Shown here piece by piece: positions 4,893-27,788 of a stretch of 33,501 nt of DNA (position 1 is its first letter; every line of letters begins with the position of its first letter). This DNA comes from an uncultured Rhodospirillales bacterium (lineage in GTDB: Bacteria > Pseudomonadota > Alphaproteobacteria > ATCC43930 > CGMCC-115725): positions 1 to 33,501 of the forward strand of contig CAIUCF010000320.1 in the NCBI GenBank assembly GCA_903897565.1, given 5' to 3'. Below the pieces are notes generated by a model. It worked only from the letters and a program-made list of their open reading frames with translations. It searched no databases and was not told the DNA's origin. The position numbers were made by a program, and so were the translations under genes.

Positions 4893-4897
4893 GGCGA

Positions 4898-8054: not shown

Positions 8055-8076
8055 CGCTGCGCTGTCGTTCCGGGAG

Positions 8077-9590: not shown

Positions 9591-9619
9591 TTATGAAATC
9601 CGAATAAGCGCATTATAAT
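9591..9619 (+). promoter_or_regulatory. Possible sigma70-type promoter for the histidine kinase gene
   Basis: A perfect TATAAT (9614-9619) lies 17 nt after TTATGA (9591-9596), which is a weak -35 with 3/6 matches, in an AT-rich divergent intergenic region. The -10 overlaps the ATG at 9618. If this promoter is used, translation would start at ATG 9690. Confidence 0.25.
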
Positions 9620-12824: not shown

Positions 12825-13868
12825 TCACGGCGCGGGGTTGGGGATACGCTGATGGATGGCATTGATCTCCTTGATGATCTCCGGCGACAGCGTCAGGTCG
12901 AAGGCGTCGATATCCGCCTTCAACTGCGCCAATGAAGTAGCCCCGATAATCGTCGCCGTGACGAAGGGCTGCGCGGCAATGAAGGCGAGCGCCATCTGCG
13001 CCGGATCGAGGCCATGCTTGCGGGCAAGCTCGACGTAGGCGTCGGCCGCTGTCTGAACCAAGTCGCCGGCGTAGCGGCTGAACCGGGTGAAGACCGTAAT
13101 CCGAGCGCCGGCCGGCCGGGCACCGCGGTAATACTTGCCCGTCAGGAATCCCATGGCCAAGGGGGAATAGGCCAGCAGCCCCAGCCCGTCGAGATGGGCG
13201 AATTCCGCCAACCCGATCTCGAACACCCGATTCAGGAGGTTATAGGCATTCTGGATCGAGGCCGGCTTGGTCGTGCCTCGATGGGCAGCAAGGCCGAGGA
13301 ATTGTGCTGCGCCCCAGGGCGTTTCATTGCTTAGCCCGTAAGACAGGATCTTGCCTTCGCGGATCAGCTCGGCCAAGGCGTCGACCGTCTCCGCGATCGG
13401 GGTCGACTGCTCGTCGGTCGGGGTGTCGAACCCGAGCCTGCCGAAGGTGTTGGTCTGTCGATCCGGCCAATGGAGCTGGTACAGATCGATGCGATCGGTC
13501 CGCAACCGCTTCAGGCTGCCCTCGACGGCGGCGCGGAGATTGGCGCGATCGAAGCGGCTCTTGCCGTTGCGGAGATAGTCCATGCCGCCGCGGCTCGGCC
13601 CGGCGATCTTGGTTGCCAGCACGACCTGGTCACGGGTGCCGGCGGCCGCGAACCACGAGCCGATGTAGCTTTCCGTCAGGGTATAGGTCTTGGCCGTCGG
13701 CGGCACTGGGTACATCTCGGCCGTATCGATGAAATTCACACCGCGGTCGAGCGCGTAGGACAGCTGCTGGTGCGCTTCAGCCTCGGTGTTCTGCTCTCCC
13801 CAAGTCATTGTGCCGAGACAGCACGCGCTGACCTTGAAGCCGGTATCCGCAAGTTGACGATAGTGCAT
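12825..13868 (-). CDS. NADP(H)-dependent aldo/keto reductase (Tas-like)
   Basis: ATG at 13868 gives 'MHYRQLADTGFKVSACCLGTMTWGE...GVNFIDTAEMYP', the classic AKR N-terminus. 347 aa. Confidence 0.85.
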   Translation of the reverse strand: MHYRQLADTGFKVSACCLGTMTWGEQNTEAEAHQQLSYALDRGVNFIDTAEMYPVPPTAKTYTLTESYIGSWFAAAGTRDQVVLATKIAGPSRGGMDYLRNGKSRFDRANLRAAVEGSLKRLRTDRIDLYQLHWPDRQTNTFGRLGFDTPTDEQSTPIAETVDALAELIREGKILSYGLSNETPWGAAQFLGLAAHRGTTKPASIQNAYNLLNRVFEIGLAEFAHLDGLGLLAYSPLAMGFLTGKYYRGARPAGARITVFTRFSRYAGDLVQTAADAYVELARKHGLDPAQMALAFIAAQPFVTATIIGATSLAQLKADIDAFDLTLSPEIIKEINAIHQRIPNPAP

Positions 13869-14062
13869 AGCGCGCTCGTTTCCGTGGAGAGGAAGACCGG
13901 ATTTTCGTATCACATGCCGCACGGCGGCAACTATCGCGTTTTCGCCAGGCCGAGCAGCGCCCGCGACAGCGAGCGCTGTTTCACCGGCGCGGCCCATCGG
14001 GCAAGATGCAGCTCCGGGAGTTGTTCAGGATTTTCATTCATGGCGAAGGGCGGTAGGAGGCG

Positions 14063-15103
14063 ATGACGGATACTGTCCCCCTGACGATCGCCTTCCGCGT
14101 CGACGGCAATCACGCCATGGGGCTCGGCCATCTGATGCGCTGCCGGGCGCTCGCCGAAGCCCTGATCGCGGCGGGTCATCGCTGCAGCTTTCTCGTGGCT
14201 GCGCCAGACCCCGAGGTAACCGCTCCACTCAAGGCGGCTGGCATCGCGATTCTGGCGATCGATCCGGCCCGGGACCGCGACGCCGCGGAAACCCTGACCC
14301 AATGCCGTGCGCTCGGCGCCGCGGCTCTGGTGATCGATGGCTACCATTTCGAGGACGGCTGGCGCCGCGCCGCGCGCGCCGTCGCGACGCCGATCGTGGC
14401 CTTTGCCGATGGCCCGCTACGTCCAGGCCATGCCGACCTGCTGATCGATGCCGCCAGCCCCGAGTCCAGCGATCCGTCTGAACTGTTCGGTCCCGACTAC
14501 GTGCTCCTGCGGCGCGAACTCGTCGAGGCTGCCCGTTTGCCGCTGTTACCGATTGAGCAGCGTCCGACGATCCTGATTACCTTTGGCGGCTCCGATCCGC
14601 TGGCGCTGACCCATCGGGTCACGATAAGCCTGTTCGGCCTCCTGCCGGACACCCAGCTCGCCGTCGTGATCGGGCCAGCGACCGAAGGCGGCGACGCCGT
14701 AGCCCGCAGCCTTCGCGCGCTCGGCCGGCGCGTTACGGTACATCGTGCACCGCCTGCGATGGGAGAGCTGATGCGCCATGCCGGGCTCGCCGTCTCGGCG
14801 GCCGGCGGGACAGTCGGGGAATTGGCAGCCCTCGGCGTTCCGGCGGTGTTGGCCGTCGTCGCCGATAACCAGCTTGCTGGTGCGCAGGCTTGCGTGGCGG
14901 CCGGCTGGTGCTCGGGCGTTGACGCACGCACCGATCCGGCCGCCTCGAACCGGCTCGCCCTCGCTGCGGTTCATCTTTGGCTTCATCCAGAAAAGCGCGC
15001 GCTCTGGGCGGCGCGAGCTCGGTCGGCCGTCGATCCAGGCGGCGCGGATCGGGTCGCCGCGGCGCTACTCGCGGCGATCGCCCGCCGCAAAGCAGGAAAT
15101 TAA
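14063..15103 (+). CDS. pseG: PseG-like UDP-2,4-diacetamido-2,4,6-trideoxy-beta-L-altropyranose hydrolase (GT28-C fold)
   Basis: AGGAGG (14055-14060) lies before the ATG. N-terminus 'IAFRVDGNHAMGLGHLMRCRALAEAL'. Central 'ILITFGGSDPLALT'. C-terminal 'SAAGGTVGELAALGVPAVLAVVADNQ'. These three blocks are the pattern I associate with the PseG family (TIGR03590). Confidence 0.75.
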   Translation: MTDTVPLTIAFRVDGNHAMGLGHLMRCRALAEALIAAGHRCSFLVAAPDPEVTAPLKAAGIAILAIDPARDRDAAETLTQCRALGAAALVIDGYHFEDGWRRAARAVATPIVAFADGPLRPGHADLLIDAASPESSDPSELFGPDYVLLRRELVEAARLPLLPIEQRPTILITFGGSDPLALTHRVTISLFGLLPDTQLAVVIGPATEGGDAVARSLRALGRRVTVHRAPPAMGELMRHAGLAVSAAGGTVGELAALGVPAVLAVVADNQLAGAQACVAAGWCSGVDARTDPAASNRLALAAVHLWLHPEKRALWAARARSAVDPGGADRVAAALLAAIARRKAGN

Positions 15104-15199
15104 CCGAATAAAAACCGTGGCCGTCGGTAGAATGCGGTCCCGAGACGACAGAACTGCTCGGGCAGCGGCAATACCGGCCCAGCCGGTCGAGGAGGCAAG

Positions 15200-16288
15200 G
15201 TGGCGACTATCCAGATCCAGGGCGTTCGTGTCGCCGGCATCGCTGCCGCGGTGCCCGAAGGCACCCGCGGTGTCGCGGATGAAGCCGCAATCTTCGGTGT
15301 CGACGAAATGGAGAAGACCGCCAAGGTGATCGGCGTCCGCTCCCGCCATATCGCGCCGCCGCAGCTCTGTACCTCCGACCTCTGTCACGCCGCCGCCGTT
15401 CGCCTGCTCGACGACCTCGGCTGGGCTCGTGACAGCGTCGACGGCCTCATCTTCGTCAGCCAGTCGCCCGATTACGAGCTGCCGGCCACCGCCTGCACCC
15501 TGCAGGCGCGGCTCGGCCTGCCCGACCGTTGCGCCGCCTTCGACGTCAATCTCGGCTGTTCCGGCTTCGTCTACGGGTTATGGCTCGGCAGCCAGATCGT
15601 CGGTGGCGGCGGCATCAGGCGCTTGCTGCTGCTCGCCGGCGACGTCAGCACGCGCCGCCTCGCTCCCCACGACAAATCGGTGAAGCCCTTGTTCGGAGAC
15701 GCCGGCACGGCGACAGCGATCGAGTTCTCGCCCGGTGCTGCACCCATGGCATTCGAACTCGGCACCGACGGCGCCGGCTTCGCCAGCATCATCATCCCGG
15801 CGAGCGGCTTCCGTCAGCCGCGCACCGATGAAACCAAGGCTCTCTTCGCCGGCGCGGACGGCATCGAGCGCAGTGCCGAGAACATCTATATCAACGGTGC
15901 CGAGGTCTTTAATTTCACGATCAAGCGCATTCCGCCGCTGGTCGAAACCCTGATGGCGAGCGCCGGCAAGACCCGGGAGCAATACGATCACTTCGTCTTT
16001 CATCAGGCCAATGCCTTCATGCTGCAGCATTTGGCCAAGCGCCTCAAAATTCCGACAGAGAAGTTCGTCCTGGCGATGGAGACGGTCGGCAATACCAGCA
16101 GCGCCTCGATCCCGCTCGCCATCACCATGGCGCTGCGCGAATCCCTCGCCGAGCAACCCCGCGAGATGCTCCTCGCCGGTTTCGGAGTCGGCCTCAGCTG
16201 GGCTGCGGCATCGCTGACCCTCGACAGGCCGGTCGTTCCGGCGCTTGTTATCGTTCCCGACGATACTCCCGCGATGGCCGCAGGCTAG
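15200..16288 (+). CDS. 3-oxoacyl-ACP synthase III (FabH-like KAS III)
   Basis: GGAGG (15191-15195) lies before the GTG at 15200. The Cys-His-Asn triad contexts 'NLGCSGFVYGL', 'FVFHQANAFM' and 'VGNTSSASIP' are all present. Confidence 0.85.
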   Translation: MATIQIQGVRVAGIAAAVPEGTRGVADEAAIFGVDEMEKTAKVIGVRSRHIAPPQLCTSDLCHAAAVRLLDDLGWARDSVDGLIFVSQSPDYELPATACTLQARLGLPDRCAAFDVNLGCSGFVYGLWLGSQIVGGGGIRRLLLLAGDVSTRRLAPHDKSVKPLFGDAGTATAIEFSPGAAPMAFELGTDGAGFASIIIPASGFRQPRTDETKALFAGADGIERSAENIYINGAEVFNFTIKRIPPLVETLMASAGKTREQYDHFVFHQANAFMLQHLAKRLKIPTEKFVLAMETVGNTSSASIPLAITMALRESLAEQPREMLLAGFGVGLSWAAASLTLDRPVVPALVIVPDDTPAMAAG

Positions 16289-16290
16289 AG

Positions 16291-17046
16291 ATGTTCAACC
16301 CCCTCGATTTCACCGGCCGACGCTTCCTGGTCACCGGCGCTTCCTCCGGCATCGGCGAGGCGACCGCGATCATGCTCGGTCGCCTCGGCGGCCAGGTCGT
16401 ACTGGCGGGACGCGATCTCGATCGCCTGAACCAGGCGGTGGCCGCGGTCCCCGGGTCCGGCCACAGCGTTGCGTCGTTCGATCTCGGCGATACTGATGCC
16501 ATTCCCGGCTGGGTCGCCAAACTTGCCGCTGACGGGCCGTTCCATGGCCTCGCCCATTGCGCCGGCCTGCAGACCCTGCGCCCGCTGAAAAGCGCCAGTG
16601 CCGCCTTCGTCGAGGAAATGCTGCGCGTCAATGTCGGCGCCGCGCTGGCGATCGGCCGCGCGATTCGCCAGCGCAATGTCGCTGCCAAGCCCGCCAGCCT
16701 GGTGCTGATCTCCTCCACGGCCGGCATGACCGGTCAGCCCGGCAACGTCGTCTACAATGCGACCAAGGGCGCGATCATTGCCGCGGTCAAGGGCATGGCC
16801 CTCGAACTGGTCCGCGACGACATCCGCGTCAATGCCGTGGCCCCTGCCCTGGTGCGGACACCGATGTCCGAGAAATCGATGAAGATCTGGTCGCCTGAGC
16901 AATTGCAGGCGGTCCTCGCGATCCACCCGATGGGCTTCGGCACCGCCGACGACGTCGCCAACGCGATTGTCTTTCTCCTGAGCGACATGGCGCGCTGGAT
17001 CACCGGAACAACGGTCGTGGTCGATGGCGGATACACGGCCCAATAA
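16291..17046 (+). CDS. SDR family oxidoreductase (FabG-like 3-ketoacyl reductase)
   Basis: The start is 2 nt after the KAS III stop. 'VTGASSGIGEA' (TGxxxGxG) and 'SSTAG...YNATKGA' (Ser-Tyr-Lys). Confidence 0.85.
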   Translation: MFNPLDFTGRRFLVTGASSGIGEATAIMLGRLGGQVVLAGRDLDRLNQAVAAVPGSGHSVASFDLGDTDAIPGWVAKLAADGPFHGLAHCAGLQTLRPLKSASAAFVEEMLRVNVGAALAIGRAIRQRNVAAKPASLVLISSTAGMTGQPGNVVYNATKGAIIAAVKGMALELVRDDIRVNAVAPALVRTPMSEKSMKIWSPEQLQAVLAIHPMGFGTADDVANAIVFLLSDMARWITGTTVVVDGGYTAQ

Positions 17047-18175
17047 CGCCTCCACGCTGGCGGCCAACCGCCTGGGTCCGGGTGACTACACTGATCCCGC
17101 GATCCTTGCGGCCGAGCGCGCGCACATCTTTCGCAGACATTGGCATTTCGTCGGCCTCGATCGCGACCTCGCCGAGCCCGAGTCCTGGTTTCTGACCAAG
17201 GTCGCCGGAACCGAGATCATCATCCAGCGCGTTGCCGGGGATGGGTTGCGCGCGTTCGTCAATGTCTGCCCGCACCGCTACAATGCCCTCGTCAACGCCC
17301 CGAACGGCCGCGGCCGGCTGCGTTGCGGCTACCATCTCTGGTCGTTCGACGACAACGGCTTGGCTGCTCAGGTCCCCCTGCGCGCCGGCGTCGCGTTGGA
17401 GGCGTGTCAGACCGCCGCGCTGTCGCTGCGCCGTTGGTCGGTCGAGCGCTGTGGCGCGCTCATCTTCGTCGCCGAGCAGCCGGAGCGGCCGCTCGCAGCC
17501 TTCCTCGGACCGCTCGGCGCTGAGCTGGCGACGCTCTCGCGGGGACTCGGCACCGAGGTCCTGAGATTCTCCCAGGACATCGCCGCGAACTGGAAGGTGA
17601 TCCTGCAGAACACGGTCGAGTTCGATCATGCCTTCGGCGTTCACCCGGAAACCTTCGCTGCGATGGTCGAGCGACCGCTCCATCTTGTCCCTCACGATGC
17701 GGTGGCGCCCCACATCGCCTATCACACGCGGATGAAACCGCGCGATGGGCTGAAGCCGATCGAGCGCCGGATCGAGGACATCTTCGCCCGCTCGGTGATC
17801 CCGCAAGCCGAGGGCTACACCCACGCGACATTGTTCCCTTCCGCGACGATCGGCACGACGGCAAACCGGATCTTCGCCCTCATTCGCTACCAACCACTGG
17901 CGCCGGACCGGACGCACGCCGAGTACCGGCTGTTCATCTCGCAGATCACCGGTCTGACGGCCGTCGAGCAGGCCATTCTCGATCGCGTGGTTCCGGTCGA
18001 TGTCGCCTTCACCCAGCGCCTGCTCGAGGAAGATCGCCAGATCTGCGAGTCGGTGCAACGCGGTCTTAGCAATGCGCCCGCCGATCTTGCTGGCATCCTG
18101 ATGCCGGGAGAGAGTCTGGTCGGGCGATTTCAGCAGTATTGGCTCGACGCCATGCGCGCAGGCGCATTAACTTAA
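17024..18175 (+). CDS. Rieske non-haem iron oxygenase, alpha-subunit type (intact)
   Basis: Rieske ligands 'CPHRYN...CGYHLWSF'. Mononuclear iron region 'NWKVILQNTVEFDHAFGVH' and a distal 'EEDRQICESVQRG'. It overlaps the SDR stop by 23 nt. Confidence 0.85.
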   Translation: MADTRPNNASTLAANRLGPGDYTDPAILAAERAHIFRRHWHFVGLDRDLAEPESWFLTKVAGTEIIIQRVAGDGLRAFVNVCPHRYNALVNAPNGRGRLRCGYHLWSFDDNGLAAQVPLRAGVALEACQTAALSLRRWSVERCGALIFVAEQPERPLAAFLGPLGAELATLSRGLGTEVLRFSQDIAANWKVILQNTVEFDHAFGVHPETFAAMVERPLHLVPHDAVAPHIAYHTRMKPRDGLKPIERRIEDIFARSVIPQAEGYTHATLFPSATIGTTANRIFALIRYQPLAPDRTHAEYRLFISQITGLTAVEQAILDRVVPVDVAFTQRLLEEDRQICESVQRGLSNAPADLAGILMPGESLVGRFQQYWLDAMRAGALT

Positions 18176-18197
18176 CCATGCGCTGCGACGCATTAAC
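18150..18197 (+). repeat. Tandem 22-nt imperfect direct repeat (26-nt period), each unit a short hairpin, spanning the oxygenase stop codon
   Basis: Unit A, 18150-18171, is CCATGCGC-GCAGG-CGCATTAAC. Unit B, 18176-18197, is CCATGCGC-TGCGA-CGCATTAAC. They share 18/22 identity. In unit A, ATGCGC and GCGCAT form a perfect 6-bp stem with a 4-nt loop. Confidence 0.6.
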
Positions 18198-18235
18198 CTT
18201 GAATTCAGAGGCCGCAGGCCATTCTCCCCCTTCAG

Positions 18236-18248
18236 ACAATTAAATTGT
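18236..18248. promoter_or_regulatory. Perfect 6-1-6 palindrome ACAATT-A-AATTGT immediately upstream of the ACP ribosome-binding site (candidate operator)
   Basis: Read directly from the sequence. It is an AT-rich island in about 65% GC DNA. GAGGA (18250-18254) and the ATG at 18259 follow. Confidence 0.3.
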
Positions 18249-18258
18249 TGAGGACGTC

Positions 18259-18492
18259 ATGACACCCACCGAATTCTACGCCGCGCTCGACGAAATGCTC
18301 GAGCTCGACCCCGGCACCATCACCGGAAACGAACGGCTCGAGGATGTCGAGGCGTGGGATTCGCTGGCCGTGATCAGCTTCATCGCACTCGTCGACGAGA
18401 AGTTCGACATCCTGGTCGAGACAGAGAAGCTCGCGGCCGCCGAATCGGTCGGCGATCTCTACGCACTGGCGACCCGCCAGAAGGCCGCCTGA
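18259..18492 (+). CDS. Acyl carrier protein (dedicated, 77 aa)
   Basis: An acidic small protein with the phosphopantetheine attachment context 'EDVEAWDSLAVISFIALVDEKF' (DSL Ser). RBS GAGGA. Confidence 0.8.
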   Translation: MTPTEFYAALDEMLELDPGTITGNERLEDVEAWDSLAVISFIALVDEKFDILVETEKLAAAESVGDLYALATRQKAA

Positions 18493-18511
18493 ACCGTCGC
18501 AGCGGCCACCC

Positions 18512-19327
18512 GTGAGCACCGTGAACCCGGCACGGGTCAAATATCGCCAGATTGAACTCGCCGGCCAGCGCGTCGGCCTCCTCACCGCAGGTCCGCCCGA
18601 GGCCGTGCCGATGCTGTTGCTGCATGGCTTCTCGGGCGACGCCCTGACCTGGCAGTTCAATGTCGGTGCACTCGCCCGCCATCACCGCGTCACCGCGATC
18701 GACCTTCCCGGCCATGGCCTGACCGAAGCGACCGAGCAGATCGGCTATTGGCGTGGCATGGTGGATTGGGTCGCGGAGATCGTGGCGGCCCTCGAACTCC
18801 CGCCAGCGCACCTCGCCGGGCATTCCCTCGGCGCCCGCATCCTGCTCGGCGGCCTGGAGGAGGAAAAGTTGGCCGGGCTCAGCCTCAGCCTGATCTCCTG
18901 CGCCGGCATCTCGCCGAGCTATGATTACGAATTCCTCGATCGGCTCTCGCGAATCGAGACGATGGCCGACGCCGTCGCCTGCGTCCTGCGCCTGCTCGGC
19001 GATGCCCCCGACCAGCCGGAACGTCTCGCCAAGGGCCTGTTCCAGAAACTGACGACCCCCGCCGCCAAGGCAGCCTTGCGTGCCTATCTCGCCAGCAATT
19101 TTGCCGAAGGCCGGCTTCTGCCGGCCGCGCCGGTGCGCTGGGACGCGCTCGCCTGCCCGTTGCAGATCATCTGGGGAGCCGATGACGGCATCGTACAACT
19201 TCCGCCACCCGATTGGCTCCCGGCCGGAATCGCCGTGCATCTGCTGGATCGCGTCGGACATCTTCCGCACATGACGGCTGCCGATCGCGTCAATGCGCTG
19301 TTGGTCGCCCATGCCGGAGCGACGTGA
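18512..19327 (+). CDS. Alpha/beta-fold hydrolase (possible acyltransferase or thioesterase)
   Basis: 'MLLLHGFSGDALTW', 'AIDLPGHG', the nucleophile elbow 'GHSLGA', and a C-terminal 'DRVGHLPHM' (catalytic His region). Confidence 0.8.
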   Translation: MSTVNPARVKYRQIELAGQRVGLLTAGPPEAVPMLLLHGFSGDALTWQFNVGALARHHRVTAIDLPGHGLTEATEQIGYWRGMVDWVAEIVAALELPPAHLAGHSLGARILLGGLEEEKLAGLSLSLISCAGISPSYDYEFLDRLSRIETMADAVACVLRLLGDAPDQPERLAKGLFQKLTTPAAKAALRAYLASNFAEGRLLPAAPVRWDALACPLQIIWGADDGIVQLPPPDWLPAGIAVHLLDRVGHLPHMTAADRVNALLVAHAGAT

Positions 19328-19905
19328 TGAGCGCGACCAATCTGCGCAGCGGCGTCCTCAGCTACCCCGCGCTCGGCGAAGAGCACGCCGCATTGGTCCT
19401 CGGCTGGCGAACGCGCCCGGATATCACCCAATACCTGCTGACGGATATCGTCCCGGATCTCGACGCCCAGAAGCGCTGGCTGGCGGCTTGCGTCGAGAGA
19501 CCGGATTTCCTCCATCGCCTGATCGCGGTCGACGACGTTCCGGTCGGCTATTGCTCGATCACGACCACGGATGCGAGCGCCGGGATAGGCGCGATCGGGG
19601 TCTATCTTGCCGAAAAGACGTCGCGCAGCGGCATCGCCAGCTTCAATTTCATCCATATCCTCAATCACGCGCTACTGACGCTCGGATTGTTCAAGATCGT
19701 CAACCACATCATGAGCGCCAATGAACGCGTGATCCGCAGCCAGGTCATGAACGGCTACCGTCCGGTCGGGATATTGCGCCAGCACGCTGTCAAACATGGC
19801 GAGCGCCACGATCTCCACGTCTTCGAGCAACTGCGCGAGGATTGGCTGAAGCATCGCGAGAAGTTCCGAGACTATCGCGATCTCGACGGCATCGAACGGC
19901 GCTAG
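19327..19905 (+). CDS. pseH: PseH-like GNAT N-acyltransferase (UDP-4-amino-4,6-dideoxy-AltNAc N-acetyltransferase family)
   Basis: The ATG overlaps the hydrolase stop (GTGATGA). 192 aa. Layout: 'LGEEHAALVLGWRTRPDITQYL', 'KRWLAAC', 'HRLIAVDDVPVGYCSIT..IGAIGVYL', 'IVNHIMSANERVIRSQVMNGYRPVGILRQH...HDLHVFEQLREDW'. This matches the PseH family pattern (TIGR03585) as I remember it. Confidence 0.65.
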   Translation: MSATNLRSGVLSYPALGEEHAALVLGWRTRPDITQYLLTDIVPDLDAQKRWLAACVERPDFLHRLIAVDDVPVGYCSITTTDASAGIGAIGVYLAEKTSRSGIASFNFIHILNHALLTLGLFKIVNHIMSANERVIRSQVMNGYRPVGILRQHAVKHGERHDLHVFEQLREDWLKHREKFRDYRDLDGIERR

Positions 19906-19908
19906 ACC

Positions 19909-20859
19909 ATGGCCGACCTCACGGAAACGCCAGCGCTCGGGCATGAGGCTTACTGGAAGGCCGAGAGTTTCGCCGCGGAGATGGGTGCCGTGTTCGCGCG
20001 GTCATGGCTTTTCGCCGGCCTCACGACCGCGTTTCCACCGGGGACGCATCCGCTGGACCTCGCCGGCATGGCGCTCACGATCGATGCCACGCCTACCGGT
20101 TTCTCGGCACGCTTTGGCGAGGCCGTGTCGGATGTCGATCGATGCGGCCAGCTGCTGTTCGTGCGTCCGGTCTCCGGGGGCCCCGGCCTTGCAGAGTTCC
20201 TCGCACCTTACGCGACGCTCCTGGAGACGATTTCGCAGGCCCTCGTCGAGGTCGACCATGTCGCGCGCATGGTGGCGCCCGTGAACTGGAAGGCCCTGGT
20301 CGAGAACACGCTCGACGATTGCCACGCGGCCACGGTTCACACCAAGAGCCTGCAGCCGGCGATGGATCCGGCCTGGCTGGCGCGCTACCGGCCCGACCGC
20401 CACGGCGCCCACAGCATGATGGGCAATGATCTCGGCGCGGCGGACGCGACGTTCTGGTCGCGTCTCGCCGAACGGCTGCCGCTCGCCCGCCACCATCACG
20501 ACGCCGTCTACAAGCACCTGTTCATCTTTCCGAATCTCTACGTCGCCACGTTTTTCGGGGCGATGGTGATCCTCCACCGGATCGATCCGATCACAGCGGA
20601 ATCGGCGGCGCTCGAATTGCTCACCTGCCTGCCCGTCACCCGCGCCATGAGCAATCGCGAGCGGGCGCTGCACGCGGCGGTGCTGCGCGATCTCGTCGCC
20701 AAGGCTGAGATCGTGGTCGAAGAGGACATGGCGGTCTGCCGCCTCGCCCAGCGCGGCCACCATTTCGCCGTCCACCCCGGCATCCTGGGCACGCGGGAGT
20801 GCCGAGTCGGCGATTTTCAGCGGACCCTGGTCCAGGCCATCGCCGAAGCCGTGGGATAG
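19909..20859 (+). CDS. Rieske-oxygenase alpha-subunit homologue retaining the catalytic (mononuclear Fe) domain but lacking the Rieske cluster ligands
   Basis: The N-terminal helix 'YWKAESFAAEMGAVFARSWLFAG' is present. No CxH...CxxH occurs anywhere, and the segment between 'ALTIDATPTG' and 'CGQLLFVRP' is too short. The catalytic motif 'NWKALVENTLDDCHAATVH' and distal 'EEDMAVCRLAQRG' are present. Confidence 0.75.
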   Translation: MADLTETPALGHEAYWKAESFAAEMGAVFARSWLFAGLTTAFPPGTHPLDLAGMALTIDATPTGFSARFGEAVSDVDRCGQLLFVRPVSGGPGLAEFLAPYATLLETISQALVEVDHVARMVAPVNWKALVENTLDDCHAATVHTKSLQPAMDPAWLARYRPDRHGAHSMMGNDLGAADATFWSRLAERLPLARHHHDAVYKHLFIFPNLYVATFFGAMVILHRIDPITAESAALELLTCLPVTRAMSNRERALHAAVLRDLVAKAEIVVEEDMAVCRLAQRGHHFAVHPGILGTRECRVGDFQRTLVQAIAEAVG

Positions 20860-20866
20860 CGCCGCG

Positions 20867-21502
20867 CTATTCGGGCGACGGCGCGATGAAATCGAACCGC
20901 GCCACCTCAATTCCCCGATTACCCGCGGGGAGCGTGATCTCGACGCTGCTCGCGCGATGATCGCCGTGAATGCAGAGATTGCGGAAGCGGATCTCCGCGA
21001 CGCCCTCCAGCTCCGGCCCGTCACCGGTTCCGAGCAGCCGGTGTCCGAGAGCCGGCGTTACGGCGAGAGCCTCGATGCGGCTCCCCAAGGCTTCGATCAG
21101 TGGCTCCGTACCCGGATCCACCCTCACGAATACCAGGCGGCCGAGGATCTCGACCTCGACCCGACGCAGCGCCAACCGCTTTCGGGCCGTGGCATCGAGC
21201 CCGAAGAGCAGGTCATTGTCGGGAATACCGATTGGTATGCCATGGGCATTGTAGACCCAGCCGTGATAAGGGCAACGCAACGGACCGACGCCGCAGCCGG
21301 CCTCCCGCATCTGGGTACCGCGATGCGAGCACACGTTCCAGTATCCGCCCAGGGCGCCGCGAAAATTCTGCACCGTGATCGAGAGCTCCGGCAGGTCGAC
21401 GGTCACATGCTGGCCGTCGACCGCGAGCCGGTCGCGAATGGTCAGGCAGAACCAACCGGTTCGCCATGATACTGCTGTCAACGGATCACCAATCCTCGCC
21501 AT
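20867..21502 (-). CDS. Stand-alone Rieske [2Fe-2S] domain protein (oxygenase alpha subunit lacking the catalytic domain)
   Basis: 'CSHRGTQM...CPYHGWVY' Rieske ligands, then 'GRLVFVRV'. Only about 90 further residues follow, with no NWK..D..H....H motif. 211 aa. Convergent with the previous gene, with a 7-nt gap. Confidence 0.75.
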   Translation of the reverse strand: MARIGDPLTAVSWRTGWFCLTIRDRLAVDGQHVTVDLPELSITVQNFRGALGGYWNVCSHRGTQMREAGCGVGPLRCPYHGWVYNAHGIPIGIPDNDLLFGLDATARKRLALRRVEVEILGRLVFVRVDPGTEPLIEALGSRIEALAVTPALGHRLLGTGDGPELEGVAEIRFRNLCIHGDHRASSVEITLPAGNRGIEVARFDFIAPSPE

Positions 21503-21565
21503 GATTTATCCGAAAATTAACTCTCGCGCGGGACACTCGACGTCGTTAGATCCTGACTTGCGATC

Positions 21566-23533
21566 TTGACCGCGTTTCTCGTCCCAAAGCCAGGTATCAT
21601 CAAGACTGTGACGACAAGCAACAGCGCCGAAACCTCCGCCACGTTCCTCGCAGCGCGAATTCTGGCCGCGCTCAATGAGGGCGCGCTGGAACAAGCCATC
21701 GGCGATCTTCAGAAGCTGCAGCAGGACGGCAGTGCCCCGGCCCTGACTCTGCATCTGGTCGGGCTCGCGTCGTTGCGCGTCAATGAGGTCGGCAAGGCCG
21801 TCGCAGCGTTCGAGGAGGCCCATCGCCTCGATCCCCAGCTCAACGAACCCGTCGAGGTTCTCGCGATCCTCCACGCCAAGCTCGGCCGTCTAACGGACGG
21901 GCTGTACTACGGCAAGCTCTCGATCGCGGCGCAGAATCGCTTCCCCGTCGCCGGCATGATCCCGGATTGGCTCGGCAAGTTCGAGGAATCCTTCTTCAAC
22001 ATGCAGGATCGCCCGCTGCTGGCCCAGGCCGAGCGGGCAATGGCGTCGGGCCATTATCTGGAAGCGATCCGGTGTTTCCGTCAGGCGGCCGAGATCGACG
22101 GCAATGCCGCGGAGACGTGGCGCGGCCTCGCGACAGCGCATCGCCTCGCCGGGCAACCCTTCGAGAGCGTCGTCGCCCTGCGCAAGATCGAGGCGATTGC
22201 CGCGCCGGAGGCCCGCGACTATGCCGCCCTCGGTGAGGCGCTGCAGATGCTGGGCCGCTGGGACGAAGCGATCGAGTGCCATGAGCACGCCGTAACGCTG
22301 GCGCCCCGGGATGAGCAATTCGGCTGGGCGGCACTGCGCTGCCGGCTGCGGCAACCGGCGACCGAGGAGGCGATCGCCGCGGCCACCCAAATCTGGGCCG
22401 CCGCCAATCGTCGAGAGCCGATCTTCGACGCGCCACCCTGGCCGGACGTCACTGCGCTGGAGCGCCGCCCGGTCCGCCTCGGTATCTATACCGGGAGTTG
22501 GCTCGACCCTGTTGCGCTCGCCCTGGTCGTGCCTCTGCTGCTTGCGCTGCCCCCGGACCGGATCGAGCTTTGTGTCTATTCCGACGGACCGGCAGACACC
22601 GAACTCGCCCGCCGGCTGCGCGGCCACGCCAAGCGATGGGAAAGCCTGACCGATCTCGACGACGAAACCGCCGCCTTCACCCTGGGCAACGAGGAACTCG
22701 ATGTCCTGATCGACCTCGATGGCCCCTTGCGGCGGACATGGCGGCCGCTGCTGTTCCAGTACCGCCCGCATCCGATCGCGTTGAGCCTACTTGACCTGCC
22801 CGTGACGGCCATGGCTGCCGGCTATTCCCACGCCCTGACCGATGCTCCGATCGGCTTGGCGGACCGCCAGCAGGTCGGCATTCCCGGGATCGCGACCAAT
22901 CTTCCAAGCGATCTTTCCCTCCTGATCCAGCCCGTACCTGATCGGGCCCTGACCGAGGGCGGTATCGTTTTCGGCACGCTCGTGCCCTATGGCCGGATTT
23001 CGATGACCGAGACGGTGCTCTGGGCCGATCTGCTGGCACAGGTGCCGGGCTCGACGCTCGCGCTTGAGCCCGATCGTCTCGGAGGCGAGCCGGGGCTCGC
23101 CGAAATTCTCGATCGCTTCAACCGCATCGGACTGGCCGACCGGGTCCGGGTCGAGCCGCGCGACCAGGTCGCGACCGCCTATCTCGAGCGCGTCGATCTC
23201 CTGCTCGACGCCCCCGGATCGCCGCACTACGAAGAGGCCGTGATGGCGATCGCCGCCGGTATGCCGGTCATCACGGTTCCCGGAACGACGCCGGCAACCC
23301 GGGCACTGGGCAATTGGCTCGGGTCGACGCTCGGCCTCGGTGAACTCATCGCCCATGATGGCGAAAGCTATGTCGCGCTGGCGCGCAACGCCGTCTCGAG
23401 CTCGGCAGGGCCTGCCCTGCGGCAACGGCTTCGCGATGCTGTGGACCGCGAGCGCAAGACCGGCGCGCCGACGCGTGCACGACTGTTCGATGCCGCCCTT
23501 CGCGAACTCCTTGCCCGGGTGAGGGCAGAATAA
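21566..23533 (+). CDS. TPR-repeat protein fused to a GT41-like (SPINDLY/O-GlcNAc-transferase family) glycosyltransferase domain
   Basis: The N-terminal ~270 aa are TPR-like helical repeats (e.g. 'GKAVAAFEEAHRLDPQLNEP', 'YLEAIRCFRQAAEIDGNAAETW', 'WDEAIECHEHAVTLAPRD'). The C-terminus follows the COG3914 pattern: 'VRLGIYTGSW', 'LDVLIDLDGPLRRTWRPLLFQYRPHPIAL', 'IVFGTL', 'VDLLLDAPGSPHYEEAVMAIAAGMPVITVPGTTPATRALGNWL..LGLGELIA'. The start is TTG 21566 or GTG 21608. Confidence 0.75.
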   Translation: MTAFLVPKPGIIKTVTTSNSAETSATFLAARILAALNEGALEQAIGDLQKLQQDGSAPALTLHLVGLASLRVNEVGKAVAAFEEAHRLDPQLNEPVEVLAILHAKLGRLTDGLYYGKLSIAAQNRFPVAGMIPDWLGKFEESFFNMQDRPLLAQAERAMASGHYLEAIRCFRQAAEIDGNAAETWRGLATAHRLAGQPFESVVALRKIEAIAAPEARDYAALGEALQMLGRWDEAIECHEHAVTLAPRDEQFGWAALRCRLRQPATEEAIAAATQIWAAANRREPIFDAPPWPDVTALERRPVRLGIYTGSWLDPVALALVVPLLLALPPDRIELCVYSDGPADTELARRLRGHAKRWESLTDLDDETAAFTLGNEELDVLIDLDGPLRRTWRPLLFQYRPHPIALSLLDLPVTAMAAGYSHALTDAPIGLADRQQVGIPGIATNLPSDLSLLIQPVPDRALTEGGIVFGTLVPYGRISMTETVLWADLLAQVPGSTLALEPDRLGGEPGLAEILDRFNRIGLADRVRVEPRDQVATAYLERVDLLLDAPGSPHYEEAVMAIAAGMPVITVPGTTPATRALGNWLGSTLGLGELIAHDGESYVALARNAVSSSAGPALRQRLRDAVDRERKTGAPTRARLFDAALRELLARVRAE

Positions 23534-23539
23534 CGGCGG

Positions 23540-23758
23540 TTAGTTCTCGACGAGCCGGAACAGGCGGGAATCGCTGAGCGCGTCGGCGCCCACTGTCTTA
23601 CTCAGGCTGCCGTCATTGCTGCAGATCAGCCGGACATGGAGGAGGCCGTCGATGGCGACGAACATGTCACGCACCACCCAGGACGGGGACGGTCGGGAGA
23701 AATGCATGCTCAGCGGTGGCTGGTAGGTCTGGCCGAGCGCGATCTCTTGTTTCGCCAT
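23540..23758 (-). CDS. Hypothetical small protein (72 aa)
   Basis: GGGAG lies 9 nt upstream of the ATG at 23758. GC-rich third codon positions throughout. No motif recognised. Confidence 0.55.
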   Translation of the reverse strand: MAKQEIALGQTYQPPLSMHFSRPSPSWVVRDMFVAIDGLLHVRLICSNDGSLSKTVGADALSDSRLFRLVEN

Positions 23759-23815
23759 GGCGGTGTCGCTCCCGATCGGGTCGTCGAAATTAGCGCAGGC
23801 GCAGCAATTGTTCGG

Positions 23816-23843
23816 GGCAGTCGGCGGTCACCCGCCGACTGCC
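23816..23843 (-). terminator. Perfect 12-bp GC-rich stem-loop 12 nt downstream of the FYDLN_acid gene stop (candidate intrinsic terminator without a U-tract)
   Basis: GGCAGTCGGCGG-tcac-CCGCCGACTGCC read directly. No T/U run on either side, so terminator function is not assured. Confidence 0.45.
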
Positions 23844-23854
23844 GGGAACAGGAC

Positions 23855-24229
23855 CTATTCCGGCGGCAGGTTGCCGATGCCGGTGATGTCCTCGGCGTCG
23901 TCGCCGAGTTCGGAGATATCCTCGATGACGTCCTCGCCATCAGCATCCTCGTCAGCGTCGACGGCCTCTTCGTCATCGACCGCTTCGAGCTCCTCGACCT
24001 CGGCATTGGGCTCGCTCTCGACGATGCCGAGCGGTGTCGCCACACCGAAGACGCTCTTGGCGCGACCACCCTGCTTCTTGATGAAGGTATCGCCGCGCGA
24101 CTTCAGTCCGGCCTCGGGGTCGAACGGCACATGGCATTTCGGGCAAACCCGCGGCTCGCGATTGAAATCATAATATCGCGCCTGACAGGCCTGACAGATG
24201 CGTTTGGTGCCGAGGTCGGGATGGGCCAA
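23855..24229 (-). CDS. TIGR02300 'FYDLN_acid' family protein (zinc-ribbon N-terminus, acidic C-terminus)
   Basis: TTG start at 24229 with GAGGAAG upstream. 'LAHPDLGTKRICQACQARYYDFNREPRVCPKCH' (CxxC...CxxC and a YYDFN variant of the FYDLN motif), followed by a long D/E-rich tail. The upstream 62 codons of ORF 23855..24415 are unlikely to be coding. Confidence 0.8.
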   Translation of the reverse strand: MAHPDLGTKRICQACQARYYDFNREPRVCPKCHVPFDPEAGLKSRGDTFIKKQGGRAKSVFGVATPLGIVESEPNAEVEELEAVDDEEAVDADEDADGEDVIEDISELGDDAEDITGIGNLPPE

Positions 24230-25132: not shown

Positions 25133-26587
25133 TCAGAGATCACGACGCCGTGCCCGGAATCGCCAGGCACGTGCAAACAGGGTCGATGCGACCCAGAGCG
25201 CGATCGCCGCGACCGGATAGGCGATCCCGGCGGGGAAGATCACGCCGAATGCGGCGAGGCCGACGAGTACGAGTCCTGCAAGCGAGAGCAGCGGCATCTC
25301 CGTCGGCCCGACATTGCGATGCTGAGCCAGCGTCGCCGAGACCGCGCTGCCGACGCCGACGGCACCGGCGAGGAGTCGTCCGGCGCTACCGGTCCTCCGC
25401 CTCTGGTCGGCACCGTTCCATCGCGGTGCGGCGCTGACCGGACCGACCCGGTGCCCCGTCAACACGATTTCGGTCGCGTTCTCGAGATCCTGTTCGAACA
25501 TGGCCTCCATCTCCGCGGCGAACGCCGGATCGTGAATGGCGATATCGAGCTCGCGATTGGAGATCCAACTCGCCAGGTTCGAGTTGCTGGAGCCGACGCG
25601 CGCCCAACGGCCGTCGGCAACCGCGGTCTTGGCGTGCATCATCGGCCCGTTCCATTCGAACACCCGAACGCCGGCTTCGAGCAGGCCGTGGTAGCCGGCG
25701 CGCGACAGCGAGCCGACCAGCGGCAGATTGGTGATCCCGGGGACGAGCAAGCGGACATCGACGCCCGCCCGGGCGGCCCCGGTCAGCGCCCGGGCATAGC
25801 CGGTCGTAGCCACGAAATAAGCGTCACTGAGCCAAAGCCTGCGCTGGGCGATTTCAGCGACGAGCTGGCCGAGGCGATACAGGCCCATGCTGTCCGGCCG
25901 GCCCGGAATCACCCAAAGATCAAGCGAGCCGGCAACGGCAGCGGGGTGTTCGACGGCCTCGGCGATGGGTGGACCGGCGACCGACCAGCTATCGGCGAAA
26001 GTGGCTTCAAGATGAGCGACCGCCGGACCACGAATCTCGAGCGCCGTGTCACGCCAGGGCGGGACGCCACGTGCGGGATCGCCGAGCCAGTCCTGCGCGA
26101 TGCAGAGCCCCCCGGTGAAAGCGATCGACCCGTCCACGCATAGGAGCTTGCGATGGTCACGGCTAACCCAGCCCAGAGGATTTGCGAGACTCGGCGGATT
26201 GTAGCAGCGGACTTCGACACCGCTTGCGCGCAGCCGTGACCAGAAGGCCGCTGACGTCCAGCGGCGGCTCCCCATCCAATCATAGAGCACGCGACAGCGA
26301 ACACCCCGGCGAGCGGCGGCTTCGAGCGCCGCGGTGAATTGCCGGCCGAGACCATCATCGGCCAGGATATAGTTTTCGAGATGGACGCTTCGACCGGCTC
26401 GCTCGATCGCCGCGAGCCAAAGCGGAAAATTCTCCGTGCCGTCGCGAAGCAGGCGCACGGCATTGCCCGAGACCTCGCTCGCCTCGGCGACCCGCGAGAA
26501 GGCGCTTCCCGCCAACGCGTCGAGGGCTGCCAGCCCCTGTCGCTCCGCGCGTTCGACTGGAACAGACCCGTTCAACCGATCAGGCAT
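25133..26587 (-). CDS. Phospholipase D / cardiolipin synthase family protein (ClsB-like) with a C-terminal double transmembrane segment
   Basis: Two HKD motifs, 'HRKLLCVDGSIAFTGG' and 'HAKTAVADGRWARVGSSN'. C-terminal hydrophobic stretches 'LLSLAGLVLVGLAAFGVIF' and 'YPVAAIALWVASTLFA'. Confidence 0.85.
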   Translation of the reverse strand: MPDRLNGSVPVERAERQGLAALDALAGSAFSRVAEASEVSGNAVRLLRDGTENFPLWLAAIERAGRSVHLENYILADDGLGRQFTAALEAAARRGVRCRVLYDWMGSRRWTSAAFWSRLRASGVEVRCYNPPSLANPLGWVSRDHRKLLCVDGSIAFTGGLCIAQDWLGDPARGVPPWRDTALEIRGPAVAHLEATFADSWSVAGPPIAEAVEHPAAVAGSLDLWVIPGRPDSMGLYRLGQLVAEIAQRRLWLSDAYFVATTGYARALTGAARAGVDVRLLVPGITNLPLVGSLSRAGYHGLLEAGVRVFEWNGPMMHAKTAVADGRWARVGSSNSNLASWISNRELDIAIHDPAFAAEMEAMFEQDLENATEIVLTGHRVGPVSAAPRWNGADQRRRTGSAGRLLAGAVGVGSAVSATLAQHRNVGPTEMPLLSLAGLVLVGLAAFGVIFPAGIAYPVAAIALWVASTLFARAWRFRARRRDL

Positions 26588-26762
26588 CCCATTCTCGCAC
26601 CATGATTTTCCCTATCGACCGGCCCATGCGCCCTTCCGTCACCGCGCCATTTTGTCGCAGCCATTTCACGCATGCCACAGGCGCCTCGACTATTCGCTAT
26701 CGGGTAACGATATCGGCGCTATCTTGGCATACCTCAACGATGAAAGCCCTGCATTCCGTTCG

Positions 26763-27788
26763 ATGACCTGGGGAAAACAAAAATCACTGCTGGTCGTCCT
26801 CCTGGTGCTCGGTTTCGCCGCGCTCGGCCATGCCTTCGTGCCCCTGCCCCGACCGCCGGTGACTGTCTACGGCTCGCATATCATCGCAAACGTGGAGATG
26901 CCGAGCCTCGCGCTCGGCCACCCGATACCGGTCACCCTCTATATCCCCGATAAGGCGGCGATGGCTTCCGGCCCGCTACCCGTCATCATCCTCCTCCATG
27001 GAGTCAACAGCCAGGGCATGGATTGGGTAACGCGCGGCCAGATCCAGGCGACCCTCGACCATCTGATCGCCGGCCGCCGGATGCCGCCGGTGATCGTCGC
27101 GATGCCCTCGACCGGCACCAGCTGGTACGTCGATTCAGCGGATATCGGCGGCCCGGGAAACTACGAGACGGCGATCGGCAGTGAATTGCCGGCCTGGCTG
27201 TCCGCGCATTGGAACGCGCGTTCCGATCGCGACGGCAAGGCCATCGCCGGATATTCGATGGGTGCTTTCGGCGCCCTTCATATCGCGTTCAAACACCCCG
27301 AGGATTGGGCAGCGGCGGGCTCGCTGAGCGGGACGTTCCTGACAGTGGTCGGCAACCAGGCCGCCATCCCGGCGCTCAACCGCCGCCTGATCGCTGGCGC
27401 ATTCGGGACTCCTTTCAATCGTGACCGCCTCCTCAAGGCAAGCCCAGTCACACTCGCGCGGGCGCTGCGGCCGCGCGAGCGCCCCGCTCCCGCGGTCTTC
27501 ATCGGCTGCGGCAAGCGCGATCAGCTGCATCTGAGCGCCGAGACCAACGGCATGATCGACGAGCTCCATCAGCTCGGGATCCCGCTCGCTACCGACATCA
27601 TCGACGGCGGGCATGACTGGAAGACCTGGAAGCAGCTGCTCCCCGATGCGCTGGTCTTCATCGGCGACCATTTCGACCAGACGACGCGGTCGGATCGTAC
27701 CGTCGCGGCGTCGACGACGACGAATACCGAGGCTCCGGTGAGCCCCGGACAGTCCGCCTCGCTCCCCCGACCGCACATCATTCCTTGA
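26763..27788 (+). CDS. Secreted esterase (esterase D / PF00756-like alpha/beta hydrolase)
   Basis: ATG at 26763 gives the signal peptide 'MTWGKQKSLLVVLLVLGFAALGHA'. 'PVIILLHG', nucleophile elbow 'GYSMGAFGA', and a distal 'GGHDW'. The upstream part of ORF 26436.. overlaps the PLD gene start region. Confidence 0.75.
   Translation: MTWGKQKSLLVVLLVLGFAALGHAFVPLPRPPVTVYGSHIIANVEMPSLALGHPIPVTLYIPDKAAMASGPLPVIILLHGVNSQGMDWVTRGQIQATLDHLIAGRRMPPVIVAMPSTGTSWYVDSADIGGPGNYETAIGSELPAWLSAHWNARSDRDGKAIAGYSMGAFGALHIAFKHPEDWAAAGSLSGTFLTVVGNQAAIPALNRRLIAGAFGTPFNRDRLLKASPVTLARALRPRERPAPAVFIGCGKRDQLHLSAETNGMIDELHQLGIPLATDIIDGGHDWKTWKQLLPDALVFIGDHFDQTTRSDRTVAASTTTNTEAPVSPGQSASLPRPHIIP

Follow-up and report, generated by a model that had tools for sequence, protein, structure and literature searches.

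The window, as we call the whole 33.5-kb stretch of DNA analyzed here, is an entire contig (CAIUCF010000320.1) of an uncultured Rhodospirillales bacterium. Between positions 14063 and 23533 it contains a cluster of ten genes, encoding in this order a PseG-type hydrolase, a dedicated 3-ketoacyl-acyl carrier protein synthase III (KAS III), a short-chain dehydrogenase/reductase (SDR), a complete Rieske oxygenase (RHO1), an acyl carrier protein (ACP), an alpha/beta hydrolase, a PseH-like N-acyltransferase of the GCN5-related type (GNAT), a Rieske-less oxygenase (RHO2), a stand-alone Rieske protein and a glycosyltransferase with tetratricopeptide repeats (TPR) of the GT41 type. The G+C content across the window lies between 59 and 68%, and as a consequence long spurious open reading frames (ORFs) are abundant. 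Ten ORFs stand out nonetheless, each with a family or domain match, and family searches reproduced all ORFs, coordinates, strands and domain calls of the original prediction, a short annotation made from the bare sequence. The distances it gave for the gene junctions also stood, but the junction between the hydrolase and GNAT genes is no ATGA overlap. It reads GTGATGA, which allows either a 1-nt TGATG overlap or a 4-nt GTGA overlap with a GTG start codon.

The first gene (14063–15103, forward strand) encodes a PseG-type UDP-sugar hydrolase, corresponding to step 4 of the synthesis of pseudaminic acid (Pse). The protein has the N-terminal motif GLGHLMR and aligns with positions 2–278 of the 280 positions of TIGR03590 with 159.5 bits, passing the equivalog cutoff of 153.55 by a narrow margin, which upholds its assignment as PseG. 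Homologues with 26–42% identity to this protein sit in pse operons of Asticcacaulis and Aliidongia. The PseH-like GNAT N-acyltransferase is encoded further downstream (19327–19905, forward strand). Its best-matching family is indeed PseH (TIGR03585), as had been predicted, yet its 56.4 bits stay below the equivalog cutoff of 93.1 and the cassette-linked GNAT homologues of Asticcacaulis and of the related loci L006 and L001 (55.6–58.3 bits) fail this cutoff as well. Compared with the solved PseH of Campylobacter jejuni, the window GNAT gives an E-value of 0.007. In Asticcacaulis machinosus (locus L022), a GNAT that is 41–44% identical to the window GNAT directly follows pseG in an operon with pseB, pseC, pseI and pseF. 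It is the sole GNAT homologue and the sole PseH-like protein in 21 kb, based on tblastn and on family scans of eleven ORFs. Given the scores below the cutoff and this position as the only PseH-like protein of the Asticcacaulis operon, the GNAT is read as a member of a PseH sister group, with a presumably different acyl specificity, and not as a certified PseH. The genes pseB, pseC, pseI and pseF, already reported missing by the original prediction, were found nowhere in the window by family scans and by tblastn with pse genes. From the complete six-enzyme pathway towards the CMP-activated sugar (CMP-Pse), the window thus contains only the PseG and PseH-like genes.

The KAS III gene (15200–16288, forward strand) is the first of four genes that form an acyl cassette. 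Its product, a FabH-like condensing enzyme, matches PF08545 (55.1 bits) and PF08541 (94.3 bits). The contexts of the catalytic Cys, His and Asn (NLGCSG, FHQAN and GNTSSAS) align with the solved structures 4EFI and 3GWA, in support of the intact triad that had been claimed. The protein scores below every NCBIfam FabH cutoff, which indicates that it is not a housekeeping FabH. The second gene (16291–17046, forward strand) encodes a classical SDR and putative 3-oxoacyl-ACP ketoreductase (PF13561 and PF00106; motifs TGASSGIG and YNATK), with FabG-like NCBIfam matches under cutoff, and it adjoins the KAS III gene in every related locus. The dedicated ACP of 77 aa (18259–18492, forward strand) matches PF00550 with 23.0 bits versus 20.8, has its DSL site within WDSLAV and stays under all NCBIfam ACP cutoffs. 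The motif WDSLAVISFIALVD is common to the cassette ACPs of the window, Aliidongia and Asticcacaulis, and the cassette ACPs of the related loci share the motif WDSLAVISF(I/V)A(L/M)VD.

The fourth gene (18512–19327, forward strand) encodes an alpha/beta-fold hydrolase or acyltransferase (PF12697, PF00561) with a GHSLG nucleophile elbow, of which the sequence matches in the PDB are generic hydrolases. Its best NCBIfam match is PRK14875, the alpha/beta domain of the AcoC-type (dihydrolipoyl) acetyltransferase of acetoin dehydrogenase, with 177.7 bits (183.6 bits for the homologue from Asticcacaulis). The AcoC-type match suggests a role in thioester acyl transfer. The enzyme may move the acyl group from ACP to coenzyme A (CoA) for a CoA-using GNAT, or load the ACP, and it could also act as a thioesterase or an O-acyltransferase. 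Among loci L001–L065, which comprise a genome scan with the KAS III protein and its closest KAS III relatives, hydrolase homologues are found only beside GNAT- or pse-linked cassettes. The Azospirillum-type loci L073 and L074 have the GNAT without the hydrolase.

The scan of the genome collection with the KAS III protein yielded 59 loci, which were tabulated by tblastn with all window proteins and with bona fide pse genes. Six Asticcacaulis genomes contain homologues of the ACP, KAS III, complete Rieske oxygenase, SDR, hydrolase, PseG and GNAT in one block. The gene order in A. machinosus is pseB-pseC-pseI / pseF-u307-ACP / KAS3-RHO-SDR-ABH-KAS3b-pseG-GNAT (ABH, hydrolase), and PseB (507 bits), PseC (472), PseI (495), PseF (343) and PseG (168) all score above their NCBIfam cutoffs. 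A metagenome-assembled genome (MAG) of Aliidongia (locus L004) encodes a flagellin, a CMP-transferase, a PseI (470 bits, above cutoff) and a PseG homologue (122.4 bits, below the cutoff of 153.55), divergent from KAS3-SDR...ACP-ABH-KAS3b; no GNAT homologue is present within the stretch of this locus examined. Locus L006 has the order SDR-GNAT-ACP-ABH-PseI. The same families thus lie beside pse genes in independently arranged loci, which ties the cassette to Pse synthesis, and we consider a function in Pse-linked acyl tailoring likely. The gene-neighborhood comparison of Asticcacaulis, Aliidongia and L006 agrees in this respect with the original prediction, which had linked the KAS III, SDR, ACP, hydrolase and GNAT to Pse synthesis. 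Its description of the cassette as private does not hold, because the cassette recurs in at least three alphaproteobacterial lineages.

As building blocks, KAS III, SDR, ACP and alpha/beta hydrolases are generic; moreover, the GNAT stays under the PseH cutoff and the core pse genes are missing locally. One could thus propose that the cassette, together with the oxygenases, serves a purpose other than glycan synthesis and yields, for example, a polyketide-like acid, a small lipid or a signalling molecule, with PseG-like and GNAT neighbors that are functionally unrelated or misassigned. We regard this as very improbable, as PseG passes its equivalog cutoff, the same families co-occur with pse genes in independent arrangements in three lineages, and a wider KAS3-ACP-SDR trio is found beside DegT-type sugar aminotransferases in many phyla. 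These more distant trios lie within a few kb of DegT/PseC-type aminotransferases (loci L010–L062) in Opitutales, Bacteroidota, Bacillota, Massilia, Cellvibrio, Vibrio and a Campylobacter. Based on this recurrence beside sugar aminotransferases, the KAS III-ACP-SDR trio looks like a widespread and largely unannotated module for N-acyl amino sugars.

Two further observations were made in these loci. In Asticcacaulis, a protein of about 307–325 aa (u307) is encoded between pseF and the ACP gene (L022, 8706–9629, reverse strand), and a 50%-identical homologue occurs in the Azospirillum-type loci (L073, 14183–15160; L074, 14054–15016). It has no Pfam or NCBIfam match and no homologue in the window. 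The sugar-modification locus of a Helicobacteraceae MAG (L049, 4212–20044) has genes for a complete Rieske oxygenase, an ACP, an SDR and as many as three KAS III proteins, and it also encodes PglD-like/hexapeptide acyltransferases, a formyltransferase, WbqC, an ATP-grasp enzyme and an FkbM methyltransferase. Here a Rieske oxygenase accompanies an acyl-ACP module outside the Alphaproteobacteria.

Three genes of the cluster encode Rieske-type oxygenases or parts of these. RHO1 (17024–18175, forward strand; PF00355 and PF00848) is a complete Rieske non-heme iron oxygenase alpha subunit with both domains in a single chain, having the Rieske ligands CPHR..CGYH and the iron motifs DH-x4-H and EED. 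Its closest solved relatives include IadD (7YLS), CntA and Stc2. The start codon of RHO1 is uncertain; the orthologue in L001 begins downstream of the SDR stop codon. RHO2 (19909–20859, forward strand) matches PF00848 alone. It has no PF00355 match, since a clean internal deletion takes out both Cys-His pairs, and it is therefore no alpha subunit of the one-chain type. DDCH-x4-H and EED are retained, and the iron ligands are invariant across a clade of Rieske-less proteins of 302–341 aa that is present in other genomes. The AlphaFold model of RHO2 (pLDDT 89.9) has a residual N-terminal beta-sheet and resembles Stc2 and CntA most (TM 0.73–0.75). Convergent with RHO2, a stand-alone Rieske [2Fe-2S] protein (20867–21502, reverse strand) matches PF00355 alone, with an intact CSHR..CPYHGW, and is the proposed trans partner of RHO2.

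The same division of labor recurs elsewhere. A row of SDR, Rieske-only (212–220 aa), Rieske-less catalytic and GNAT genes is found in L073 (Azospirillum sp. TSO35-2; 8044–10990), L074 (9342–11583) and L075 (1427–3620). The Rieske-only gene directly precedes the Rieske-less gene with a 4-nt overlap in L074 and L075, while in L073 an IS605-family OrfB/TnpB-type gene is inserted between the oxygenase halves. The GNAT of these Azospirillum-type loci is 49% identical to that of the window, and a KAS III with 48–50% identity is encoded nearby (two contigs compared). All three loci also have a full-length Rieske oxygenase gene and a BNR_2 (sialidase-like) gene that are convergent downstream. A metagenomic protein of 457 aa (P0309) naturally fuses a Rieske domain to a complete Rieske-less unit of the RHO2 type, providing a Rosetta-stone link. 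In another locus, a full-length oxygenase, whose Rieske domain is 47% identical to the Rieske-only protein of the window, is divergent from a TPR-GT41 homologue and is followed by a GNAT gene. From the adjacency with a 4-nt overlap and the P0309 fusion we infer that RHO2 and the stand-alone Rieske protein act in trans as a conserved two-gene split oxygenase. The original prediction had named the two proteins separately, and both are present; the reading is amended to that of a conserved pair. Decaying remnants of a one-chain enzyme were considered and rejected in view of the intact ligands, dN/dS values of 0.13–0.37 and the recurrence of the pair in adjacent or fused form.

In Asticcacaulis, the Rieske oxygenase gene lies between KAS3 and SDR. 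Since Rieske genes recur with the cassette in Asticcacaulis, in L073–L075 and in L049, the oxygenases appear to be an integral part of the tailoring module. We consider it possible, at somewhat less than even chance, that they act on the acyl group. Among solved structures, the alpha3 Rieske monooxygenases CntA, Stc2 and GbcA come closest to RHO1 and RHO2 in fold and sequence; they have no beta subunit and use small polar aliphatic substrates. They differ in having the Rieske domain in the same chain and in serving the catabolism of free quaternary amines, whereas here RHO2 lacks the cluster loops, the Rieske protein is separate and the context is that of glycan biosynthesis. In animals, CMAH likewise employs a Rieske centre, in this case to hydroxylate an activated nonulosonic acid at its N-acyl group. 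The catalytic domain of CMAH is not known to belong to the ring-hydroxylating alpha-subunit type, and the analogy is therefore functional only. The literature searched contains no link of Rieske oxygenases to pseudaminic acid or flagellin glycosylation, nor did full-text searches find a paper that connects pseudaminic acid with both a 3-hydroxybutyryl group and an ACP.

The last gene of the cluster (ORF 21566–23533, forward strand) encodes a TPR + GT41-type (OGT/SPINDLY-like) protein glycosyltransferase of 641 aa from the called GTG start at 21608 to 23533. It matches PF13844 with 33.9 bits versus 25 as well as TPR_1/2, and hence combines the TPR and Glyco_transf_41 parts of a GT41 protein. 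TPR repeats occupy about residues 150–280 and the glycosyltransferase domain about residues 440–635. The protein aligns to SPINDLY over residues 152–633 (E = 2.6e-18) and to human OGT over residues 443–592. The domain call of the original prediction was confirmed; it had not recognized an architecture of the FlmG type. FlmG of Caulobacter crescentus has 596 aa, the first 313 of which contain its TPR repeats; the N-terminal TPR half of FlmG binds flagellins, and the C-terminal GT-B half provides glycosyltransferase activity (PMC7591256). The window protein matches this two-domain architecture of about 600 aa, the comparison being one of architecture and not of sequence. The source names of the TPR-GT41 homologues make no mention of FlmG, and three papers citing FlmG give no family beyond GT-B.

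A word-seeded search with the TPR-GT41 protein returned close relatives only. An exhaustive HMMER search retrieved full-length homologues of 615–675 aa with about 28–42% identity, from alphaproteobacterial MAGs where the organism is named. In all four contexts examined of a full-length homologue (28–39% identity; L068–L071, genes from 10001 to about 14000), a Maf gene (Maf_flag10_N + MptE-like) lies directly downstream. In one of them, two flagellins, FlaF, FlbT and hook genes precede the homologue and nonulosonate genes follow. A conserved GT41-Maf gene pair of Alphaproteobacteria was not found in the literature searched. A search of a plasmid collection returned only generic TPR-glycosyltransferase proteins of Azospirillum and others with 23–33% identity, and the one context inspected was uninformative.

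Maf is the usual nonulosonate transferase, and the pairing raises the question whether the GT41 protein transfers a different sugar. OGT transfers GlcNAc and SPINDLY fucose, and solved GT41 members in general use UDP- or GDP-sugars and not CMP-sugars. In combination with a likeness to FlmG based on architecture instead of direct homology comparison, these observations argue that a Maf encoded elsewhere might transfer the acylated Pse, while the GT41 enzyme would add another sugar to flagellin or to the glycan, or modify another protein. We regard this alternative as unlikely, though it deserves appreciable weight. Neither the cluster nor its syntenic relatives encode a Maf, the GT41 gene being their only glycosyltransferase gene, and the GT41 gene shares a conserved promoter region with a Rieske gene of the tailoring module. 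Moreover, FlmG demonstrates that a protein with TPR and GT-B parts can suffice for transfer of Pse to flagellin (PMC7591256).

This divergent promoter region between the Rieske and TPR-GT41 genes contains a CtrA-box-like motif, TTATCCGAAAATTAAC (21506–21521), with one mismatch to the CtrA box TTAA-N7-TTAAC and no second such match in the window. The 16 nt are nearly invariant (one G/A difference) in the orthologous intergenic regions of L001, L003 and L066, where most of the adjoining sequence is conserved as well. The Caulobacter promoters PflmG, PflmA and PneuB are direct targets of activation by CtrA (PMC7591256). Expression of the transferase and the Rieske gene may hence be under CtrA control, as far as the motif and its conservation indicate. 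An alignment of the orthologous regions 5' of pseG showed nothing that compares with the conserved block upstream of the TPR-GT41 gene. Scans of 13800–24000 for sigma-70 consensus promoters and intrinsic terminators gave counts no higher than in shuffles and are thus uninformative on operon boundaries.

A flagellin acceptor is reasonably probable in our view. The acylated nonulosonate could alternatively be destined for a polysaccharide (capsule, K-antigen or O-antigen), with a TPR-GT41 protein unrelated to flagella. No flagellar gene is present in the window, and the Azospirillum-type split-oxygenase loci have the look of polysaccharide loci, being rich in GT2/GT1 glycosyltransferases and containing the BNR sialidase-like gene. 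According to the original prediction, N7-hydroxybutyryl Pse occurs in polysaccharides of Sinorhizobium fredii and Pseudomonas aeruginosa. The capsule of Acinetobacter baumannii contains it as well (PMC9676051). This destination nevertheless seems improbable: genes for Wzx/Wzy, an ABC exporter or a polymerase are missing from the cluster, a flagellin gene adjoins the homologous cassette in Aliidongia, the TPR-GT41 family occurs in loci with flagellin, Maf, FlaF and FlbT genes, and the CtrA-like box recalls the flagellin-modification promoters of Caulobacter.

The ten genes are seen in identical order and with identical housekeeping flanks in several related metagenome contigs, whose proteins are 54–94% identical to those of the window. 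The closest named relatives are Rhodospirillales MAGs, among them an Aliidongia sp. Across the ten genes, pairwise Nei-Gojobori dN/dS values lie between 0.03 and 0.37, and dS is close to 1 or exceeds it. The constraint is strongest for KAS III (0.06–0.12), SDR, ACP (0.03–0.08 at 90–92% identity) and GNAT and weakest for PseG (0.20–0.29 at 60–68% identity), RHO2, the Rieske protein (0.16–0.25) and the transferase. Domain matches, synteny and these ratios together indicate that all ten genes are real and under selection. A recent horizontal island was rejected, as the G+C content does not stand out from that of the flanks, no mobility gene is nearby and the relatives have the same flanking genes. 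The original prediction had likewise seen no mark of a recent island, in agreement with the vertical conservation suggested by synteny. The cluster is most likely a vertically inherited accessory module of the Pse pathway.

Taken as a whole, the cluster is probably a module for Pse with an oxygenated acyl group that works together with a protein glycosyltransferase, most likely in the glycosylation of flagellin. Every step of the following mechanism is based on family knowledge and gene context. On the private ACP, KAS III would join malonyl-ACP to a primer that is an acyl-CoA and probably acetyl-CoA, and the SDR would reduce the 3-oxo group to give a short 3-hydroxyacyl thioester, most simply 3-hydroxybutyryl. 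For a C4 3-hydroxyacyl starter as the acyl group we see an even chance. The two Rieske monooxygenases resembling CntA, Stc2 and GbcA (RHO1 and the split RHO2) would oxygenate the acyl group or the acylated sugar. The AcoC-like alpha/beta enzyme might shuttle the acyl group between the thiols of ACP and CoA or otherwise load or unload the ACP. The PseH-like GNAT would then acylate the 4-amino group of UDP-4-amino-4,6-dideoxy-beta-L-AltNAc in place of acetate, at the position that becomes N7 of Pse, and PseG would remove UDP. PseI and PseF, presumably encoded elsewhere, would complete the CMP-activated sugar. Finally, the GT41-type protein would recruit its acceptor protein, probably flagellin, through the TPR half and transfer the sugar with the GT-B half, in analogy with FlmG. 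A more specific proposal, which we put forward tentatively and hold to be rather doubtful, is that the N7 acyl group of Pse is a polyhydroxylated short chain (e.g., di- or trihydroxybutanoyl). It would be made by the two Rieske monooxygenases on an ACP-tethered or sugar-bound acyl group, one of them being split in trans with a separate [2Fe-2S] polypeptide docking on a Rieske-less trimer, and the GT41 enzyme would deliver the sugar to flagellin from a CMP-sugar donor. Such a polyhydroxylated N7 acyl group has not yet been reported for Pse.

Several observations weigh against an oxygenated-acyl Pse module that feeds a protein glycosyltransferase. The GNAT does not reach the PseH cutoff, and pseB, pseC, pseI, pseF and flagellar genes were found neither in the window nor in the syntenic contigs. 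A reductase or ferredoxin for the oxygenases is not encoded in the cluster, and the Azospirillum-type split-oxygenase loci have no ACP, hydrolase or pse gene within 10 kb. The transferase is likened to FlmG by its architecture only, and its homologues are paired with Maf in four other contexts. The CtrA-like motif is not significant by itself, since about 0.26 chance matches are expected and 21 out of 100 shuffles contain at least one match; its support derives from conservation despite saturated synonymous divergence and not from the match count. Finally, the psaABCGHF genes of A. baumannii resemble the cluster in that variant PsaG and PsaH replace the acetyl-specific pair, leading to Pse5Ac7(R-3-hydroxybutanoyl), but they come without dedicated ACP, KAS III, ketoreductase or oxygenases, and the product goes to the capsule and not to protein (PMC9676051). 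With variant psaG and psaH alone, an ACP module is thus not required for a 3-hydroxybutanoyl group.

Flagellin and nonulosonate glycosylation loci with N-acyl diversification are a known kind of system, and it is the present make-up, including the split Rieske oxygenase, that is new. The closest characterized logic is that of the viosamine island of Pseudomonas syringae pv. tabaci (vioA, vioB, vioS, vioR, acp, vioM and vioT), which has homologous genes in the flagellin glycosylation island of P. aeruginosa PAK (PMC3927599). In P. syringae, vioS (KAS III), vioR (reductase), acp and vioB lead to N-(3-hydroxybutanoyl)viosamine on flagellin; deletion of vioR or vioB abolishes the sugar as judged by mass spectrometry, while the roles of vioS and acp are assigned by homology (PMC3927599). 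Like the present cluster, this island places a dedicated KAS III, a 3-oxoacyl-ACP reductase and an ACP beside an amino-sugar N-acyltransferase and a transferase. It differs by using dTDP-viosamine and no nonulosonate precursor, by lacking GNAT, PseG, alpha/beta hydrolase and Rieske oxygenase genes, and by VioT being another kind of transferase. The claim that no characterized locus has this composition appears to hold for the whole make-up, but the combination of KAS III, ketoreductase and ACP for acyl synthesis has a precedent in P. syringae (PMC3927599). The flagellin locus of C. jejuni may also carry fabH2, acpP2 and acpP3; the literature searched gave no confirmation of this, and it is given no weight here.

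The FlmG/FlmH/Flm-Pse flagellin glycosylation system of Caulobacter crescentus is likewise alphaproteobacterial and comprises a soluble transferase with TPR and GT-B parts, a flmG promoter controlled by CtrA and a PseH-like GNAT with weak similarity to C. jejuni PseH; the pse genes are scattered over several loci (PMC7591256). Unlike the window cluster, this system has no KAS III, ACP, hydrolase or Rieske genes, and FlmG acts alone, whereas a Maf usually accompanies the homologues of the window protein. The Group II polar flagellin islands of Aeromonas interleave pse genes with genes for an ACP, a 3-oxoacyl-ACP reductase and other acyl-handling proteins, the role of these acyl genes being unproven (PMC7874193). 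They differ from the cluster by an AMP-dependent synthetase together with LuxE/LuxC in the absence of KAS III, by Maf and many extra glycosyltransferases, and by lacking Rieske genes (PMC7874193). As none of these systems joins a KAS III, ketoreductase and ACP with pse genes, an AcoC-like hydrolase, Rieske oxygenases and a GT41 protein, we take the composition to be new.

Nonulosonic acids on flagella and capsules shape motility as well as recognition by phages and by the immune system. It is chiefly through their N-acyl groups that these sugars vary chemically, and little is known of how groups other than acetyl are supplied. The genes described here suggest a set for this purpose, with KAS III, ketoreductase and ACP as a private line, the AcoC-like enzyme as an acyl shuttle, a sister clade of PseH, and the Rieske oxygenases. 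It recurs in several Alphaproteobacteria and could be used for genome mining and glyco-engineering. Should the proposal of a polyhydroxylated acyl group be true, bacterial nonulosonate tailoring would gain its first assigned Rieske oxygenases and thereby a counterpart in bacteria of the chemistry of CMAH, with one of the enzymes naturally split in trans. The split enzyme would also be a natural experiment on inter-domain electron transfer. With the GT41-type TPR family at flagellin and Maf loci, the range of candidate flagellin glycosyltransferases comes to include more than Maf and the FlmG proteins investigated to date.

The flanks of the cluster are housekeeping genes. On the 5' side these are kdsB, prephenate dehydratase, nudC, a hybrid histidine kinase, thpR and an aldo-keto reductase, and on the 3' side a PLD-type synthase, an esterase, two PMT_2 glycosyltransferases and fumA. 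The esterase-family gene and the two PMT_2/ArnT-like membrane glycosyltransferase genes (27785–29374 and 29578–31125) lie within 26436–31125, in an arrangement that is syntenic in the relatives and has no obvious connection to the cluster. An ORF of 493 aa (935–2416) gives a weak match to an EACC1-associated caspase family (26.7 bits, far under cutoff). The kdsB product, a CMP-Kdo synthetase, is the only cytidylyltransferase that the window encodes, and it belongs to the Kdo and not to the Pse type. Its match spans residues 343–583 of a 592-aa ORF (4826–6604), of which the long N-terminal extension is probably an artefact of ORF calling in high-GC DNA or an overlap with the ORF at 4122–5054.

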